From the NCBI GenBank assembly GCA_030867685.1, contig JAQOWU010000007.1, forward strand, positions 682,001-746,000: a DNA stretch of 64,000 nucleotides, written 5' to 3'. The notes under the pieces are model-generated. The model searched no databases and was not told where the DNA came from. It saw only the letters and a program-made list of their open reading frames with translations. This document shows positions 2,928-51,931 of the stretch, piece after piece. Position 1 is the first letter of the stretch, and every line of letters starts with the position of its first letter. The stretch is from Wickerhamiella versatilis. Lineage: Eukaryota. Made by a program: the position numbers and the translations under genes.

Positions 2928-4676
2928 TTAGCTAGGGGATAGAACATTTTCTTTCAGAGTCTCTAATCCATTTTCTCTCTCTCTCACTCTTTTAGAGACT
3001 TTGAGATTATCAAACCATGGCTTAAATGCATCTGCGACCAGCGCAAAAGCATATTGAGCATCTTCCCCTAGATCCTCCAGCAATGATAGGTCTACTTCAT
3101 CATTTTCCACAGTCCAATGAACAGGTGGTTTGTTAATTTGTTTCTGTAACAAGGATAAAAACTTGTCGAGCAATTCGAGATTCTGAGCAACTGTTGTTTG
3201 AACATATCCGACAGTATCATCTTCAATGCTATCCACCATTAGTGCACCAACTGATCGCATTGCTATCTCCAGCACATCAGCATTTGGCAAAAGAATATTG
3301 AGCTGCCGCGCAGTTGTCCTTCGAAACGGGTACCCAATAGGCGAGGCAAGAAACAACTTTACGCGATGATTTTTCCAATGAGTGAATGCATGTTCTGCCG
3401 ATGTCACCTTTTTTTGCGCTTCGATTCCTTTACTGTGCATGTCATCTTGTAATTTTTCAACTAAGCGAACGCCAACTGAGGGCTTCTCGATGAAAAAGAC
3501 GTTTTTCCCATGAATCGTGTGAAGTTCTGGGAGCTTATGTGTAGATATACTTCCATCATTAATACGTAGATCCTTCAAATTTGAATTTTCAACTGCCTTT
3601 TTCTTCTTGGGCTTCGTCGACATATCAAGATTGTCGATGGCAGTATTTAACAAGCTTTGATATGACTCATATACAAGTTTCCAGACAATTCTATCGCTAT
3701 CAGCATCATTGAATAACGACTGACGCCTTTTTGGAATCTGTTCAGCTATCAGAAGTAGCTCATGCCAAGCCATCACTTGTGCCAATGACCCATGCTTTGC
3801 TTGAAGCCCTTGTGCAAGCGAACCATTTGGATCTTGCGAGATTTCAGAAATTGTACGGCCATGGTGAATTGGACCGAGAGAAATGTAAGTTTGAAAGAAG
3901 CCATGGGATATTTCCCATAAGAGTGGTAGCAAGGACCATCGCAATGGCGTGGTAAGGAGAGTTAAGAATCTTGGATTCGAAGTTGTATGGGTGAATTCAA
4001 TACCAAAAAAAATGAGGGGCCAACTTATGGATGTAACTATCCACAGAAACAATGCCCTTGTAAGAATCCCTCGTGCTCGTCGCTGAATTCTTGGCAGAGG
4101 ACCAAGCCTAAATTCCTCAGGGATAAACGCAACCACATTCCTATCAAAACCGACATATATCCCAGCCATCACCAGAGACAAATATGCAGTGTAACCAGTT
4201 GGGTAAAGCCACTGCGCATTGAACACTGTAATGTCGTGTTGAACCAACTCCCTAGGAAGACCTGGTGGGATTTCGCGCGGGCCAAACTGTAAGGTTATTG
4301 TCTTTGGTTCCGGTCCCCAAACTGCCTGCTGGTAGAGCAATCCACTAATCAAGTAAAGGGATATCACGAGTACGAGGTGAGGTGAAGAAAGTCTTGCTTT
4401 CCAGTCCTCAAAAAGGCTAGCTCTTGGGATAGCTCGAGCTGTAATAGTATATTTCTGCATAAATAGGATAACAGCAATAGCCAAGAAGATGTGTATGGCT
4501 ACGTATAAGGGTGCCAAGCTCCTTGTTATTATGGATGCAAGAGTCCATGAGAGAAACAGCACTAATTTTAATAGAACTGAAAAACGTGAAAAAAGGACTC
4601 GAGCCAGCAGAACATCATACTGAGCTGTCTTACGCTCAACCGGACGGCGAGACAGAAGACGGATGCCTGTAGCCAT
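2928..4676 (-). CDS. NDC1: Transmembrane nucleoporin Ndc1
   Basis: Several N-terminal TM segments, then Ndc1-like motifs (ISEISQDPNGSL..GL, MAWHELLLIA..RRQSLF, SIEDDTVGYVQ). Confidence 0.75.
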   Translation of the reverse strand: MATGIRLLSRRPVERKTAQYDVLLARVLFSRFSVLLKLVLFLSWTLASIITRSLAPLYVAIHIFLAIAVILFMQKYTITARAIPRASLFEDWKARLSSPHLVLVISLYLISGLLYQQAVWGPEPKTITLQFGPREIPPGLPRELVQHDITVFNAQWLYPTGYTAYLSLVMAGIYVGFDRNVVAFIPEEFRLGPLPRIQRRARGILTRALFLWIVTSISWPLIFFGIEFTHTTSNPRFLTLLTTPLRWSLLPLLWEISHGFFQTYISLGPIHHGRTISEISQDPNGSLAQGLQAKHGSLAQVMAWHELLLIAEQIPKRRQSLFNDADSDRIVWKLVYESYQSLLNTAIDNLDMSTKPKKKKAVENSNLKDLRINDGSISTHKLPELHTIHGKNVFFIEKPSVGVRLVEKLQDDMHSKGIEAQKKVTSAEHAFTHWKNHRVKLFLASPIGYPFRRTTARQLNILLPNADVLEIAMRSVGALMVDSIEDDTVGYVQTTVAQNLELLDKFLSLLQKQINKPPVHWTVENDEVDLSLLEDLGEDAQYAFALVADAFKPWFDNLKVSKRVRERENGLETLKENVLSPS

Positions 4677-21916: not shown

Positions 21917-23737
21917 CTACATCAGAAAGAGTGCTTTTTGGTGAAGAATGCGGATACCAAGAAATTCCCACTCACGTCTAGATATCCACATTTCTTCCCC
22001 AATTTTTAGACGCGAATAAACTGCTGCCCCTTTCCATAGGATCATTGTCGGGTCGAGATCACGGGGAATTGGCAAAACGGCGATGTCACCATGATCCTTT
22101 GTGACCTTTGGAGCCCACATACCTAAGCGATCTGATAGCAAATTATGGAAATCAGGTATATTAGCACCTCCGCCCACTACCAACACATTTTCGTAATATG
22201 TTTTGGGTGAGCCCCCTGATTTTGTCGCCTGTGTTATTGATTCGACAATAGCATGATCAAGGGGGGCAACAACAGCCTTCCGAGGATCAAAAAGCTCCTC
22301 GGATTCAGTCTGAGGGTCTCCTGATTTAGGCCCTTGATTCTGGGTGCTTGACGGCTTGGTGTGAGCAGCATCGGGTGCTGGTGTCGATTTTGAATCTTCA
22401 TCATCAGTTCCTCCAACCTCAGACGCAGGTTCACTTCCAGGTTCTGCCGGTTTATTTGTGTTTGAGCTCAACTCGGATGCGAAAGACTGGCCATTCACAG
22501 CAAGTTGGCCATGACAGACATTGAGTTGGGCATCACTCAACTGATCATCAACGTGGCCTTCGTAAGGGTCGACTGGACGGTGAAAAAGCCTGTGTTTGTA
22601 GATTCTTTTTTGAGAATTAGAAAATAATTGAGGATAGAAAAGCCCAAGGACGGGTAGCATCACTTCATTGTAGACTTTAAAGTCAAATTTTCGTTGACCA
22701 ACCGTAGCCGAATAGAGCTGGATTTCAATATCATCATTATTTGCTGTGCAAAACTTCCTCTTAAGACTGTCCGAATCCTTATATGCCATGTCTTCGATCG
22801 GAAATGCGATCCGCTTAAGAAGCCTTGTGAAGGCCTCCGTAATATCATCACCGCCAATGTCCAAATATACACGCGAATGAGGCACACAAACGCCTTCATC
22901 AATACAAGCTATTTTGGTGGTCTCTGCACCGACATCCACTACACAGGCACTAGAAATTCCTGCCCCAAATGTCGCAGCTACCGATTCCTGCAGAATAAGC
23001 TGATGGCGAAATCCCAAATCGAACAATATTTGCATTATAGTTGAGATTTGGTTTCTATCAAATGTGTCAGGAACAAGAAGAACAGCGTCAGATTCCCTGG
23101 GATCCCTAGGCATGACGCATTGCAAGTATGTCGTGAGGTCATCAATGACTTGTTGAGAGCTAGCGTAGCAAGAATCCTCTGTGAGTCCACCCTGCTGCAG
23201 CAGCCATATTATGTTAAACTTGGAGCTATCAGTATTAAGAGCACCATAACCGTAAAAGGCTTCATCACCGACATCCTCATCATCGACTGATTCTCCTTTT
23301 TGACGTGCATTAAAATTGCTACACATCTCTGTGGCATTTTTAGCAACATTTATTTTATAAAACCGCATTCTTTCGCGAAAATCGGCCTCAGTTACTTCGA
23401 CAGCATGCTGCCACTCTGGAATATCGCCTTCTCTGGGATCTTGCTGCGGCTTCATTTCATCTTTTGGTTTTGCAATACAAAGAGGTATTTCTCGCGGATT
23501 TACATCACTAGCACACCCAATACGAAGGTATCGTGAGCCGAAATGAAGTACCACTGTGGATTCTGGCGTGAACTGCACATCCTCTGGCCGAGGCTGGTTT
23601 GCCAAAAGCTGAGCATCTCGCTTAAGATAACCAGTGAAATAGTTCTTCTGATTGATTGCCGGAACAAGGCGGAAACTTGTTTGACGCTGGCGGTTGTCCA
23701 CTTTATGCACCCGGGCCCCACCGCCTGTTGCTGACAT
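21917..23737 (-). CDS. ARP8: Actin-related protein 8 (INO80 complex)
   Basis: INQKNYFTGYLKRD, HFGSRYLRIG, QESVAATFGAGISSACVVDVGA, PRDLDP..WKG. Confidence 0.93.
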   Translation of the reverse strand: MSATGGGARVHKVDNRQRQTSFRLVPAINQKNYFTGYLKRDAQLLANQPRPEDVQFTPESTVVLHFGSRYLRIGCASDVNPREIPLCIAKPKDEMKPQQDPREGDIPEWQHAVEVTEADFRERMRFYKINVAKNATEMCSNFNARQKGESVDDEDVGDEAFYGYGALNTDSSKFNIIWLLQQGGLTEDSCYASSQQVIDDLTTYLQCVMPRDPRESDAVLLVPDTFDRNQISTIMQILFDLGFRHQLILQESVAATFGAGISSACVVDVGAETTKIACIDEGVCVPHSRVYLDIGGDDITEAFTRLLKRIAFPIEDMAYKDSDSLKRKFCTANNDDIEIQLYSATVGQRKFDFKVYNEVMLPVLGLFYPQLFSNSQKRIYKHRLFHRPVDPYEGHVDDQLSDAQLNVCHGQLAVNGQSFASELSSNTNKPAEPGSEPASEVGGTDDEDSKSTPAPDAAHTKPSSTQNQGPKSGDPQTESEELFDPRKAVVAPLDHAIVESITQATKSGGSPKTYYENVLVVGGGANIPDFHNLLSDRLGMWAPKVTKDHGDIAVLPIPRDLDPTMILWKGAAVYSRLKIGEEMWISRREWEFLGIRILHQKALFLM

Positions 23738-25130
23738 GAGAGTGAGGTCGTTTCACTGGAGTGCAAGGCTCTTAGGCTCCGAGGGTCTCCGTGATGCTCA
23801 GGAGATGCTTGGCTATGGATACTATCCACCAAGTAATATAATCTCTAAACGTGAGTATAATATATCACCTTCGCTTGTCAATTCTTACCGTCAGCAGATC
23901 CGAGGCGGGACCGGATTTCGAGACATTGCAATAATAAAACTACGCTCTGGGGATGGCGGAAATGGTAAAATCTCCTTTTTACGCGAGTCGGGGCGAGCAG
24001 TAGGTCCCCCGGATGGTGGTGACGGAGGTGAGGGTGGAAGAATTTATGTACAAGCACAAAACAATATAAGTGGACTGGGTCACCTTCGTCATATTTACAC
24101 AGCAGCAAACGGAAAATCAGGTGGTTCCACACAGCTTAGCGGCAAGAATGGCACCAACGTAGTGCTTCAGGTTCCTGTCGGCACTTCGATTTATTGGTCG
24201 CCTTCGCTGGATGATCTAAAGTCGGGTAATTTGACAACTACCGTTGACACGGTTCAAAACATATCAATCGGAAATGCTTCTTTGGACACTGCTATTCAGC
24301 TACACAGAGAATGTCATAAGGAAAATTGGTTGTTCAAGGAAAAAGATGAAGATTACTGGCGCCAGCAGCCCACATTCAAAAGACTTGCATCTCGGGTACA
24401 ACAACTCGATATTATATCACGTCGGACCGAGCGTGAAAGGGATATCTTCCCATTTCAAGGATTAGATCTTTCTACACCAAGTGATCCAATCCAGCTTCTC
24501 GGGGGTGGCATGGGTGGACTTGGAAATATGCACTTTCAGACACCTGAGTTGCGAAGCCCCCGTTTCGCCACGAAGGGTAGAGCCGGAATCGAGGGAACAT
24601 TCATATTTGAGCTTAAAATGCTAGCAGACGTAGGTCTTGTGGGATTGCCTAACGCTGGTAAATCTACACTGCTTCGAGCTATATCGGCCGCAAAACCACA
24701 GGTGGGTCATTGGGAATTTACTACGCTGGCTCCATCAATAGGGACTATATCACTAGGTTTGGGAGGGCCACAGTTCACTGTTGCGGATATTCCAGGTATA
24801 ATTGATGGTGCTTCAAAAAATAGGGGCTTAGGCCTTGGCTTTTTGAGACATATTGAAAGATCTAGAGGTATCACTTTTGTAATTGCATTGGATCGTGCAG
24901 ATCCCCGCGGTGACCTGGAAATTTTAATCTCCGAACTCGGAACAAGGATGAAAGACAAGAAGTGCCTTGTTGTGGCCACTAAGGCCGATCTACCTGGTAC
25001 AGAAACTGCGTATAATAACTTGAAATCCAGTCTCCCAGTCGGGTTTGATATCATTCCTTGTAGTGCCCAGGAAGGCGGAAACGTCGACGCAGTCATTGAG
25101 CGGATGGGTGCGATTGCCGGAGTTGAGTAG
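23736..25130 (+). CDS. MTG2: Mitochondrial Obg-family GTPase Mtg2
   Basis: First ATG at 23736 gives presequence-like MRVRSFHWSARLLG; Obg fold SGDGGNG..PPDGGDGGEGG; G-motifs GLPNAGKSTLL, FTTLAP, DIPG, TKAD. Confidence 0.92.
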   Translation: MRVRSFHWSARLLGSEGLRDAQEMLGYGYYPPSNIISKREYNISPSLVNSYRQQIRGGTGFRDIAIIKLRSGDGGNGKISFLRESGRAVGPPDGGDGGEGGRIYVQAQNNISGLGHLRHIYTAANGKSGGSTQLSGKNGTNVVLQVPVGTSIYWSPSLDDLKSGNLTTTVDTVQNISIGNASLDTAIQLHRECHKENWLFKEKDEDYWRQQPTFKRLASRVQQLDIISRRTERERDIFPFQGLDLSTPSDPIQLLGGGMGGLGNMHFQTPELRSPRFATKGRAGIEGTFIFELKMLADVGLVGLPNAGKSTLLRAISAAKPQVGHWEFTTLAPSIGTISLGLGGPQFTVADIPGIIDGASKNRGLGLGFLRHIERSRGITFVIALDRADPRGDLEILISELGTRMKDKKCLVVATKADLPGTETAYNNLKSSLPVGFDIIPCSAQEGGNVDAVIERMGAIAGVE

Positions 25131-49314: not shown

Positions 49315-51066
49315 CTAATTGTTTTTCACGCGACATATTTCCACCCTGACTCCGAGTTCGAGGAGAAATTGAAGCCAGCAGCGCTGATTGTCACTCAGCG
49401 TATCTTTCGTCGACTTAACCTCGACAAAACTCACTTCTTTATGATTCCATAACGTAAGGTCAGGAAATCCAGACTGATAAAGACGATAATTTGATCGAAG
49501 ATGTTCGAGCACAGGCCCTAGAAAGCTATCGAGGCCTGTGATTATTGATCGCAATGCGGTTTCAGGAATATCCCAGTTAATCCCAATAATTTGAGGGAAA
49601 CCATCTTTACTCAGGGCCTCACGATTTTCAATTATGATCTGTGCTAAACGCGAATTGTTAAGGCGTTCCTTGACACGAATATCGTTGATTGAGTCTTGGA
49701 TGCTTAAAGGGGCCGACTGAAAACGGCATCGAAACTGAGAAACCTGTGAAAAAATGAGATCCGACACCGACAGCCAGAATAATGTGTGAATAGAACTATT
49801 TTCAAGATGCATACCTTCCCACGAGTCCCTGGAATAATGCTCAAGTGCGGCTTCCTCCACGGTACAGTGGTCAATTCCCCATTTAGTTCTCGACTTGGTA
49901 CTGGACGATTGGAGATCTGCGCGGATCTCACATTCATGAACAGAAAACTTTTTCGATGCCTGCAGTAATGGTGGAGCACTCACATTCGCCAATTTCAGCT
50001 CCCTCCACAGCTTTGTCCCTTTACGCTCCAAATCAATACGTTCAATTTCACTGACAACAATCTCAGCCTCATAGTAACTGTTTAACGATCTATGAAGCCA
50101 GCTAGGACTCTTTGTTTCCTTCCATAATCGGATCTCTAGCAGGATTTTGCGAATGATTGCCTCTCCAAGTTTTGAACGATGGGCTGTTTGGTTAATATAT
50201 ATATCCAGCCAATCATACTCTGCTTGAAAATCATGCATCTTAGCCAGAATTTGACTTATTTTGAATGCAGCACGCCCGTATGTTCTCGCAGCAAGGCCAG
50301 TGGTTGACAACAAGCCCTCTCTTACCATGTCGAGCACCTCACTGTCGACAGAATTTGCATCCTCAAGTGGGAAACAAATCTGATGTGCCAGAAACCAAGA
50401 TTCGAATGCATCCCGGTCAGCAAAAATGGGGGCATCTTTTTGAGGTATATAGTTATATTCAGGAAACCGTAATAAACCCATGTTTGCTCGCACCATCACA
50501 TCTATACCAACACCACCTGCAGGATATAAAAACATAGACTCTAATCTTTTGAAGAGTTCCAAAATCCAACCGCTGAGAACCACAGGATGGCCTCCGCCTA
50601 TTTCCAGCTCGAGGCGGGCCTGAATCTTCGGCTCAAAAGGGCCCCCAAACCACCGCTTTTGCTTTACAAGGGACTTGATACTATTAACTATAACTGATCT
50701 GCCAGCCAATCGTTGTCGAATTCCGAAATGTTGAGCTACATTCGTCAGTTCTTTCACCGAGGCAACAGCGCAGAGCTCCTCAACGGATCTGCCTTGCTCA
50801 ATCGCTTTGGCAGCAGCTAATTCTGTTAGCACCTCTTCAAGTATCTCTGGTGAAAGATAGTTAAGCAATTCTGACCGACGGACCCATCTTACTTGGCGAC
50901 AGTATAATCTTGTCAGAAGATATCGGGCTTCCAAGGATAAGAGCTGATAAATTCTTATACTATTTTTCTCGCAGAGATTATGGTCGATTTCATTCAATAT
51001 CTCGTCAAATATACGGACATAGGCATCATTGTCGAGGATCTTCCAATACTCAGGCTTCGGACCCAT
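49315..51066 (-). CDS. FAN1: FAN1-like structure-specific nuclease (VRR-NUC)
   Basis: [10 protein letters not shown] near N-terminus, [24 protein letters not shown]-terminal [23 protein letters not shown]. Confidence 0.88.
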
Positions 51067-51085
51067 CCATAGTCATCAACGAAGG

Positions 51086-51931
51086 ATGGGAAAAAGCAGT
51101 AAGGATAAGCGTGATATCTATTATCGCAAGGCAAAGGAAGAGGGATGGCGTGCTAGATCCGCATTCAAACTGCTGCAGCTTGATGAAGAGTTCCGTTTTC
51201 TTGACTCCTTTGAACGTGTGGTAGATCTTTGTGCAGCACCCGGATCATGGTCTCAGGTACTAGCCAGGGCAACTCAGGGCCGCCAGCGGCAAATAGTGAG
51301 TGTAGACCTTCAACCAATAGCTCCCATTGATGATGTGGTAGCCATTCAAGCAGATATTACCCACCCAGCAACGATTCAGCAAATTTTACATGAGTTCCAC
51401 GGTGAAAAAGCGGATCTTGTGGTTAGTGACGGTGCTCCTGATGTTACGGGATTGCATGATTTGGATGAATACGTGCAAGCACAGTTGGTATATGCTGCAC
51501 TTCAGCTGGCCACGGCTGTTCTGAAGCCAGGCGGCATGTTCATAGCCAAGATTTTTCGTGGCAGGGATATTGATTTAATGTATGCCCAGTTAGGGCGTCT
51601 ATTTAAGCGTGTAACATGCGCAAAGCCTCGTTCGTCAAGAGCCTCGTCACTTGAAGCATTTATTGTTTGTGAAGACTATGTGCCGCGGGATGGGTGGGAC
51701 CCGATAAAGCAAGTGGAGGAATCGACACACGATTACTTCAAAAATATGAATCTTCCAGTGGAAGAACGTGTTGTGGCTCCGTTTTTGGCATGTGGAGACT
51801 TGAGTGCCTACGATAGCGATGCCACTTACCCAGCCCCTGTTGGTGAGTCGCTCGATCCTGTCAGAAGTCCAATATCACCTCCATATAAACATGCATTAGA
51901 GCTCAAACGACATGGCCTCATCAGTAAATAA
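51086..51931 (+). CDS. TRM7: tRNA 2'-O-methyltransferase Trm7 (FtsJ)
   Basis: Starts [29 protein letters not shown] at ATG 51086; [23 protein letters not shown]. Confidence 0.97.

Follow-up and report, generated by a model that had tools for sequence, protein, structure and literature searches.

The start codons of two conserved genes share a single CATG palindrome in a stretch of 64,000 nucleotides (nt) from the budding yeast Wickerhamiella versatilis (assembly GCA_030867685.1, contig JAQOWU010000007.1, positions 682,001 to 746,000 of the forward strand; hereafter the window, within which all positions are counted from its first letter). ARP8, which codes for actin-related protein 8, a putative subunit of the INO80 complex, is read from the minus strand and MTG2, which codes for a mitochondrial GTPase of the Obg family, from the plus strand, and the two ATGs that make up the palindrome are, as judged from sequence comparisons, the best-supported start codons of both genes. 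RNA reads place the 5' ends of the two main mRNAs at this palindrome and indicate that RNA polymerase II starts both genes in one small crossing initiation zone. Hence, we propose, with a probability of roughly 0.65, that ARP8 and MTG2 form a head-to-head pair with zero spacer, in which the start sites cross, the promoter of each gene lies within the coding sequence (CDS) of its partner, and both proteins are produced by cap-proximal initiation. The spacer between ARP8 and MTG2 would have shrunk to nothing in a highly compacted budding-yeast genome.

The sequence around the junction is gctgaCATGagagtg, in which C23735, A23736, T23737 and G23738 can be read directly as CATG. A preliminary description of the window, made from the sequence alone, had placed the ARP8 ATG (minus strand, 23737) and the MTG2 ATG (plus strand, 23736) in this palindrome at 23735-23738, and its coordinates and peptide strings are correct. 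It was also right that there is no intergenic DNA, since the two CDSs overlap by 2 bases, and that ARP8 has no other Met ahead of its INQKNYF..YLKRD block, the next in-frame Met being codon 95. The bases held in common are AT, the ATG-to-ATG gap is -2 base pairs (bp), G23738 is exclusive to the MTG2 ATG and C23735 is exclusive to the ARP8 ATG. In-frame stops are found 5 codons upstream of the ARP8 ATG (23753-23755, minus strand) and 17 codons upstream of the MTG2 ATG (23682-23684), without an ATG in between, and each CATG start is therefore the first possible ATG of its frame.

Both products have strong named orthologues and the expected Pfam domains, so that a chance pair of open reading frames (ORFs) does not account for the arrangement. 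The ARP8 product matches the Actin profile (PF00022, E 1.7e-24, 86.7 bits with a cut-off of 27) as well as Actin_micro and MreB_Mbl, and its named Arp8 matches come from Sugiyamaella, Trichomonascus, Candida and Saccharomyces, with E down to 0. The MTG2 product has the architecture expected of the Obg family, an N-terminal Obg fold followed by a GTPase domain (GTP1_OBG, PF01018, E 2.2e-36, residues 63-154; MMR_HSR1, PF01926, E 2.9e-20, residues 298-416). Named MTG2/Obg proteins of budding yeasts match it with E down to 1e-230, those of Sugiyamaella and Trichomonascus at about 50% identity, and the proteins of the closest relative are 75% (MTG2; public protein P0005) and 76% (ARP8) identical to those of the window. 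The best matches assign the yeast to the order Dipodascales within the Saccharomycotina, close to Trichomonascus and Sugiyamaella. Rfam and tRNA scans of the 64-kb window found no RNA genes, and an RNA gene thus does not explain the locus.

RNA reads from four runs belonging to two studies, which carry the same species label and come from another strain, were placed on 23300-24200, where they are 95-99% alike to the window; X8 and X9 are paired runs, and X11 and X12 are poly(A) single-end runs. Across the four runs no splice joints, insertions or deletions were found in 23300-24200, which indicates that the locus has neither an intron nor a hidden spacer. It is barely credible that the overlap is an artefact, in the sense that a spacer was lost by mis-assembly or that a hidden 5' intron or exon makes one of the two ATGs unreal. 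The N-termini of relatives are longer in both proteins, and an intron-like GTGAGT...CAG string at 23851-23897 could be taken in favour of this view. The candidate intron in MTG2 (GTGAGT...TTCTTAC...CAGCAG, 23851-23894/23897) was rejected, as its removal (44 or 47 nt) breaks the frame, no RNA joints are seen and the upstream frame has a stop at 23839-23841. Furthermore, 97-100% of the sampled words of 22900-24600 are found in four DNA data sets, the exact 464-amino-acid (aa) MTG2 protein has been recorded publicly from 8 contigs, and the 464-aa ORF is also present in a second strain (P0004). The word coverage, the reads free of indels or joints and the recurrent 464-aa protein together show that the CATG arrangement is not an assembly artefact.

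A trough in RNA depth is located at the bin 23734-23764 in all four runs. Into and past the trough, the depth in X8 takes the values 57.6/60.8, 22.7/22.2, 5/12.2 and 17.9/22.1, and it reaches about 40 by 23889. The plus-direction depth in X11/X12 is 0/0 at 23672-23702, 0.23/4.1 at 23703-23733 and 15.8/18.9 at 23734-23764, and the minus-direction depth in these runs mirrors it, going from 7.2/11.2 down to 2.65/4.74 in the bin beyond 23743. Mirror-image edges of this kind are to be expected if cDNA molecules end at the junction. Unaligned read ends of the form ...CAACGCAGAGTACATGGG stand immediately ahead of 23736, and the reverse complement of this sequence stands directly behind 23743. CAACGCAGAGTACATGGG corresponds to the template-switch oligo of the SMARTer system, which has been described as marking RNA 5' ends in the reads that contain it (PMC9245221). 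The main RNA 5' ends are thus at the AUG or a few nt from it (16 reads at 23736 and 12 reads at 23743; Table 1), and the two divergent genes have transcript 5' ends that overlap by 8 nt. In X11, the ARP8 tag at 23743 carries one extra C, corresponding to a cap-type extra G. The genome lacks GGG ahead of either 5' end (GAC precedes the MTG2 end), which, together with the position of the clip, argues that the tags do not stem from classical strand invasion. Cutting of an antisense duplex by RNase III or Dicer was considered as a source of the ends and set aside, as such cleavage would not be expected to leave an 8-nt 5' overlap and fragments from further upstream are missing. The preliminary description had stated that the mRNA 5' ends are either antisense or leaderless and that promoter and 5' untranslated region (UTR) of each gene lie inside the CDS of the other. 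The reads favour the leaderless option, with leaders of 0 and 6 nt, over long antisense 5' UTRs; the promoter half of the second statement is retained, as deduced from the 5' ends, whereas the UTRs amount to 6 nt for ARP8 (two MTG2 codons) and 0 nt for MTG2.

Table 1. Features of the ARP8/MTG2 junction in the window (SNP, single-nucleotide polymorphism).
Feature	Position	Strand	Details	Evidence
CATG palindrome with both start codons	23735..23738	both	plus ATG 23736-23738, minus ATG 23737-23735	direct reading and ORF limits
ARP8 (actin-related protein 8) CDS	21917..23737	minus	606 aa and stop	ORF, Pfam, named orthologues, N-terminal length like relatives
MTG2 (mitochondrial Obg-family GTPase) CDS	23736..25130	plus	464 aa and stop	ORF, Pfam, named orthologues, exact public protein
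Main MTG2 mRNA 5' end	23736	plus	A of the ATG, 0-nt leader; C(-1)A(+1)	oligo-tagged reads, 10 (X11) and 6 (X12)
Main ARP8 mRNA 5' end	23743	minus	6-nt leader ACUCUC; C(-1)A(+1)	oligo-tagged reads, 4 (X11) and 8 (X12)
Stretch present in both main mRNAs	23736..23743	both	8 nt, the whole antisense overlap	derived from the two 5' ends
MTG2 codons 3-23, between first and second in-frame ATG	23742..23804	plus	VRSFHWSARLLGSEGLRDAQE	coding by homology, alignment A1
Out-of-frame ATG	23794..23796	plus	15-codon ORF running over the 23805 ATG; upstream AUG if 23805 is the start	
Second in-frame MTG2 ATG (MLGYG...; Met24)	23805..23807	plus	rival start	N-terminus not presequence-like by crude measures
AT-rich TATA-like run	23856..23865		TATAATATAT; MTG2 codons 41-44; 113-122 nt upstream of the ARP8 5' end	candidate ARP8 pre-initiation site, proposed from its position
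SNP-free stretch	23673..23911	both	239 nt; ARP8 codons 1-21 and MTG2 codons 1-58; candidate zone of extra constraint (promoter or start-site)	two strains

Several features of the reads weigh against taking these ends at face value. The consensus of the MTG2 oligo tags lacks the extra G, and tags of this kind could derive from decay ends; according to PMC9245221, oligo-derived 'start tags' may have such an origin, and it is the extra G that forms the cap signature. In addition, the genomic ACATGAG (23734-23740) resembles the 3' end of the oligo, ACATGGG, and could favour template switching, although the clip at 23736 leaves the full GGG in the unaligned part, which argues against an artefact of this likeness. 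There are also minor signals of longer transcripts, namely a plus-direction depth of 4.1 at 23703-23733 in X12, a depth of about 3 for minus-direction reads in X11 and X12 on the right-hand side of 23743, and fragment ends at 23715 (7, X9) and 23750 (5, X8), and the RNA strain differs from the window by about 3%, though it is identical across 23673-23911.

These signals bear on the view that the two proteins are made from rarer, longer transcripts that begin within the CDS of the partner and carry antisense 5' UTRs, while the molecules ending at 23736 and 23743 are poorly translated or processed, which we consider quite improbable. The upstream plus-direction depth in X12 and the 7 fragment ends in X9 would fit longer MTG2 forms, the minus-direction depth, which extends over 23765 to 23950, and the 5 fragment ends in X8 would fit longer ARP8 forms, the depth in the trough of X8 and X9 never falls to zero (5-12), and the lack of an extra G would be explained if the MTG2 tags were decay ends (PMC9245221). 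However, in X11 the plus-direction depth is 0-0.23 upstream of 23736 against 15.8 downstream, so that longer MTG2 forms make up at most a few percent in that run. The libraries are unstranded apart from end effects, and the minus-direction reads beyond 23743 may come from MTG2 fragments, of which they would represent the distal ends. Moreover, the ARP8 end bears the cap-type extra G in X11, and both ends fall on C-A initiator dinucleotides. A separate feature of the read placement is the collapse of depth at 24137-24200 and 23331-23392, where variants are dense (for instance at 24140, 24143 and 24153); this collapse at the ends of the examined stretch most likely reflects the 95% likeness filter and not a drop in expression.

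The ARP8 start at the palindrome agrees with the position of the start codon in related proteins. ARP8 relatives begin 11-15 residues before a block of the form (R/K)(V/I)(D/N)N...INQKNY(F/Y)T.YLK(R/K)D (for example P0126, P0128 and P0130), and the corresponding distance in the window is 11; N-termini such as MPKRSKEPLAYSRVNN and MAKKTKEPSAFPRVNN are found in relatives, and that of the window is MSATGGGARVHKVDN. In the ARP8 alignment (A2) M1 is nearly invariant, and within the block I28, N29, Q30, K31, N32, Y33, T35, Y37, L38 and D41 are the same in 18 of 18 aligned sequences. Codon 95, at which the next in-frame Met is found, is located past the first strand of the actin fold, and the next AUG of any frame on the ARP8 mRNA is out of frame. 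Since starting at codon 95 would delete part of the actin fold, use of the cap-proximal AUG appears to be forced for ARP8. Public ARP8 calls P0124 and P0125 from this and the sister species (597 and 598 aa) begin at codon 10, with V read as M, a truncation that we take to be the work of a gene caller forbidding 5' overlaps. The public MTG2 call of the sister species, P0005, starts 12 codons later than that of the window. Disallowed 5' overlaps are probably the cause of the late starts in all three (P0124, P0125 and P0005), and public protein sets produced by such callers will under-report overlaps of this kind.

For MTG2, a second in-frame ATG at 23805 offers an alternative start, and the conservation of the sequence between the two ATGs speaks for the first. 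MTG2 residues 3-23 align with an N-terminal block of relatives, xRxFH...G(S/I)E(D/E), in a 20-row alignment of the window protein and 19 homologues (A1). In A1, 14 of the 19 homologues have residues across most or all of the block between the two ATGs; the exceptions are P0005 and P0015, which start within the block, P0016, whose first residues fall in the final three columns of the block, and P0007, P0021 and P0029, which start after it. Residues 3-23 have a BLOSUM62 sum of 232; shuffled sequences score -251 +/- 73, and none of 5000 attains 232, with the caveat that it was the real sequence to which the alignment columns had been fitted. The sister protein P0005, which is 75% identical overall, keeps 9 of 10 residues (GSEGLRDIQE) ahead of the second Met, whereas the linker that follows is kept at about 62%. 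Crude measures of the N-termini point in the same direction: from the first ATG there are 4 lysine plus arginine residues (K+R), the first acidic residue is at position 16 and the hydrophobic moment is 0.62, whereas from the second ATG (MLGYGYYPPS...) there are 2 K+R and the moment is 0.35. Among 11 relatives measured the moment is 0.28-0.89, with 8 of the 11 within 0.58-0.84. The relatives argue, at the level of sequence, against 23805 as the ancestral MTG2 start. The presequence-like N-terminus announced in the preliminary description resembles the presequences of relatives by these measures, but in the window only two residues (Met-Arg) precede the conserved VRxFH block, compared with 15-25 more in relatives. 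The preliminary description had also named two findings that would speak for the downstream Met. One of them, that orthologues consistently begin there, does not hold, as 14 of 19 homologues carry the block ahead of 23805; as to the other, transcripts start exactly at 23736 and not downstream of it, and initiation at 23805 stays a rival.

With a 5' end exactly at 23736, initiation at the first AUG would be unusual in mechanistic terms, and it is this that keeps the 23805 start alive. It is conceivable, but unlikely, that the CATG overlap is real at the level of the ORFs while MTG2 is translated mainly from 23805, with a conventional 5' leader formed by the 69 nt from 23736 onwards. Codons 1-23 would then represent a recently retired piece of presequence, which still resembles those of relatives through its recency or through a role in the ARP8 promoter. 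A leader of 69 nt is normal for yeast, the segment 23772-23804 is 29-61 nt upstream of the ARP8 start, where constraint on the DNA could mimic conservation of the protein, and the sister call P0005 likewise begins 12 codons after that of the window. The first ATG supplies, with its A, the 5' end of the main mRNA, and cap-proximal AUGs tend to be missed (PMC3177215; Kozak 1991 in PMC5124965). In contrast, the match of residues 3-23 to the N-terminal block extends to distant homologues, the out-of-frame ATG 11 nt ahead of 23805 would intercept scanning ribosomes, and an N-terminus starting at Met24 is unlike the presequences of relatives, and Mtg2 must in any case reach the mitochondria. Finally, ARP8 with its 6-nt leader has no alternative AUG, and cap-proximal initiation must therefore work in this yeast.

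We thus favour translation of both proteins from the cap-proximal AUG. In ARP8 this AUG would be at mRNA position 7, and MTG2 would be read from mRNA position 1 of the leaderless main mRNA or from minor mRNAs that start about 20 nt upstream and have leaders of about 21 nt. Initiation at the first MTG2 AUG would preserve the conserved N-terminal block together with a short presequence-like end. The following points count against this part of the proposal. Short leaders have been described as impairing the fidelity of initiation and raising leaky scanning (PMC3177215), and Kozak 1991, as cited in PMC5124965, is the source for cap-proximal AUGs being missed by scanning. A leader of 0 nt would be a poor substrate for scanning, and this applies to use of the +1 AUG of MTG2. 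The presequences of relatives are 15-25 residues longer than the MR of the window, and targeting to mitochondria by an N-terminus of this brevity is putative. The 17 open codons that precede the MTG2 ATG in the plus frame (23685-23735) read RWRLSTLCTRAPPPVAD, which has a presequence-like look and contains no ATG. This segment may be due to chance, or it may be a relic of an ancestral MTG2 N-terminus on which ARP8 codons 1-18 are now overprinted. A non-AUG start of MTG2 within RWRLSTLCTRAPPPVAD was set aside, as the main transcript excludes the region and 17 open codons are expected by chance in about 44% of cases.

The plus start is located left of the minus start, so that the two cross and each of them has the 5' CDS of the partner as its upstream DNA. 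We infer that the recruitment of RNA polymerase II to each gene must reside in this coding DNA, where the elements are candidates only. For each gene, the sequences responsible for placing the polymerase would lie within about the first 40 codons of the partner: recruitment to MTG2 would use the DNA for the N-terminal part of ARP8, in which the most conserved motif of that protein is included, and recruitment to ARP8 would use the DNA encoding the MTG2 presequence and linker. In Saccharomyces cerevisiae the spacing between TATA and start is 40-120 nt, and the distance of the TATA-like run TATAATATAT from the ARP8 5' end fits this. Each elongating polymerase would cross the initiation site of the partner, so that some interference is to be expected; both genes are of modest depth.

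Variation between strains is compatible with additional constraint at the junction. In the 901 nt of 23300-24200 there are 27 variant places between the window and the RNA strain (about 3%), of which 24 are at third codon positions; all 27 recur in the two paired runs and 23 of the 27 in the two poly(A) runs. The amino-acid changes of the RNA strain match P0004 and P0124, which implies that two fairly divergent lineages are grouped under the same species label. No variant is found in the 239-nt stretch that spans the palindrome (Table 1), and the CATG is accordingly identical in the RNA strain. The probability that the largest gap between variants is at least 239 nt is 0.006 for all sites and 0.012 for third positions only, assuming uniform placements and on the basis of one two-strain comparison. 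Such a SNP-free stretch fits the idea that synonymous sites on both sides of the CATG carry non-coding information.

Tight spacing is not confined to this junction. In an ORF map of the window (ATG to stop, at least 120 aa, overlaps removed), ORFs cover 81% of the 64 kb, and the ten divergent ATG-to-ATG gaps measure 36, 38, -2, 232, 938, 47, 423, 19, 49 and 429 bp, so that 6 of the 10 are at most 49 bp. The other tight pairs also consist of conserved genes (Ndc1/Nic96, UCH/BCS1, Exo_endo_phos/phosphoribosyltransferase, VRR_NUC/FtsJ and unknown/eIF3h), and their ATGs are at 4676/4713, 13034/13073, 44480/44528, 51066/51086 and 54527/54577. In four of these genes the Pfam match covers the profile from position 1-2 onwards and sets in 19-27 residues beyond the ATG that was called, so that the called starts of the four cannot be much in error. 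ARP8/MTG2 is the extreme of a local, and perhaps genome-wide, pattern. The second-tightest divergent pair, with a 19-bp spacer (ATGs 51066-51086), is formed by a VRR_NUC (FAN1-like) gene and a gene for an FtsJ-type methyltransferase, in which the FtsJ profile starts at residue 21. Further tight gaps are found between tandem genes (32 bp, 8628/8661) and convergent genes (26 bp, 49288/49315), where terminators and promoters must overlap neighbouring genes. It is possible, though on balance doubtful, that these gaps reflect a lineage-wide, microsporidia-like habit in a non-microsporidian fungus, with promoters in neighbouring CDSs, transcription starts at or next to the ATG and routine cap-proximal initiation.

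The neighbourhood of the two genes is old: MTG2 and ARP8 have consecutive accessions in Sugiyamaella lignohabitans, and in Trichomonascus vanleenenianus their accessions differ by two. Source contigs of equal size hint at linkage of MTG2 and ARP8 in ten further relatives, with adjacency unproven by that measure. A metagenome scan with the ARP8 alignment returned 80 loci, all from distant fungi (25-34% identity), and an MTG2-like match was present in the flanks of 0 of the 80.

If the two genes are expressed as the reads suggest, core promoters can be written wholly into coding DNA on both sides of a junction, each polymerase must cross the initiation site of its partner, and essential proteins of a yeast can be made by cap-proximal initiation. 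For faithful choice of the start codon, yeast ribosomes are considered to require a leader of around a dozen nt. Should the habit prove to be genome-wide, it would break the 'minimal regulatory space' of 80-260 bp of other yeasts and would mean that polymerase II scans for start sites in an altered way and that the 43S complex is less demanding as to the length of the leader. The locus also provides a genetically tractable test bed for promoter-in-gene design, transcriptional interference and leaderless translation, as the bases G23738 and C23735 each belong to a single gene. For genome annotation, the case illustrates that callers forbidding 5' overlaps shorten one of the partners, as in P0124 and P0125 with their start at ARP8 codon 10. 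A literature search of limited scope found no description of a yeast gene pair with common start-codon bases, nor of a natural leaderless nuclear mRNA of a budding yeast.

Individual features of the ARP8/MTG2 junction have counterparts in other systems. For 11 yeasts, practically no promoter-containing regions between CDSs below about 80-260 bp are reported in the account of Chen, Wei & Lercher 2011 (PMC3128071). ARP8/MTG2 resembles the 'old, short' divergent regions of that account in having one common initiation region and an old, conserved neighbourhood, but differs from the yeasts described there in its gap of -2 bp and in the five more pairs at 19-49 bp in the same window. It also differs from bidirectional promoters with a common nucleosome-free spacer, as the ARP8 and MTG2 starts do not point away from such a spacer but cross each other. 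The msh3/dph3 pair of Schizosaccharomyces pombe was considered as a precedent for a shared start codon and set aside, its spacer of 268 bp not being comparable. In mammalian head-to-head pairs such as INO80E/HIRIP3 the 5' transcript ends overlap, as in ARP8/MTG2 (PMC11890862). However, the mammalian pairs described in that source overlap by long 5' UTRs or first exons, whereas in ARP8/MTG2, which has almost no UTR, the overlap amounts to 8 nt for the RNAs and 2 nt for the CDSs.

With respect to translation, the start-codon element TISU has been described as directing both transcription start and cap-proximal, scanning-free translation, with a median leader of 12 nt and enrichment in genes of basic functions including respiration (PMC3177215). 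TISU was tried as an explanation of the CATG and rejected: the consensus given in that source, SAASATGGCGGC, is unmatched on both strands, with 3/9 matches beyond the ATG for the plus strand (TGACATGAGAGT) and 4/9 for the minus strand (TCTCATGTCAGC) when compared by eye. The ARP8 and MTG2 leaders of 0-6 nt also differ from the TISU median. Translation of leaderless or one-nucleotide-leader mRNAs by eukaryotic ribosomes, including those of yeast, is on record, for instance in Giardia and for an engineered yeast tcm1 (as cited in PMC5124965). The yeast tcm1 case in that source is an engineered construct, whereas the MTG2 mRNA would be a natural nuclear case, with a conserved mitochondrial GTPase as its product.

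The system most similar to the junction is that of the microsporidian Encephalitozoon cuniculi, for which 5' UTRs of less than 7 nt and transcription signals adjoining the start codon have been reported (PMC2803860). ARP8/MTG2 shares with it leaders of 0-6 nt, very short spacers and transcription start at the start codon. In the same source, correction of start codons reduced the head-to-head CDS overlaps of E. cuniculi from 129 to 9, and the signals are intergenic. ARP8/MTG2, in contrast, is without any intergenic DNA, has no CCC-like motif before either ATG and belongs to a budding yeast with ordinary gene content. It can be viewed as the short-leader expression of compact genomes combined with a bidirectional gene pair.

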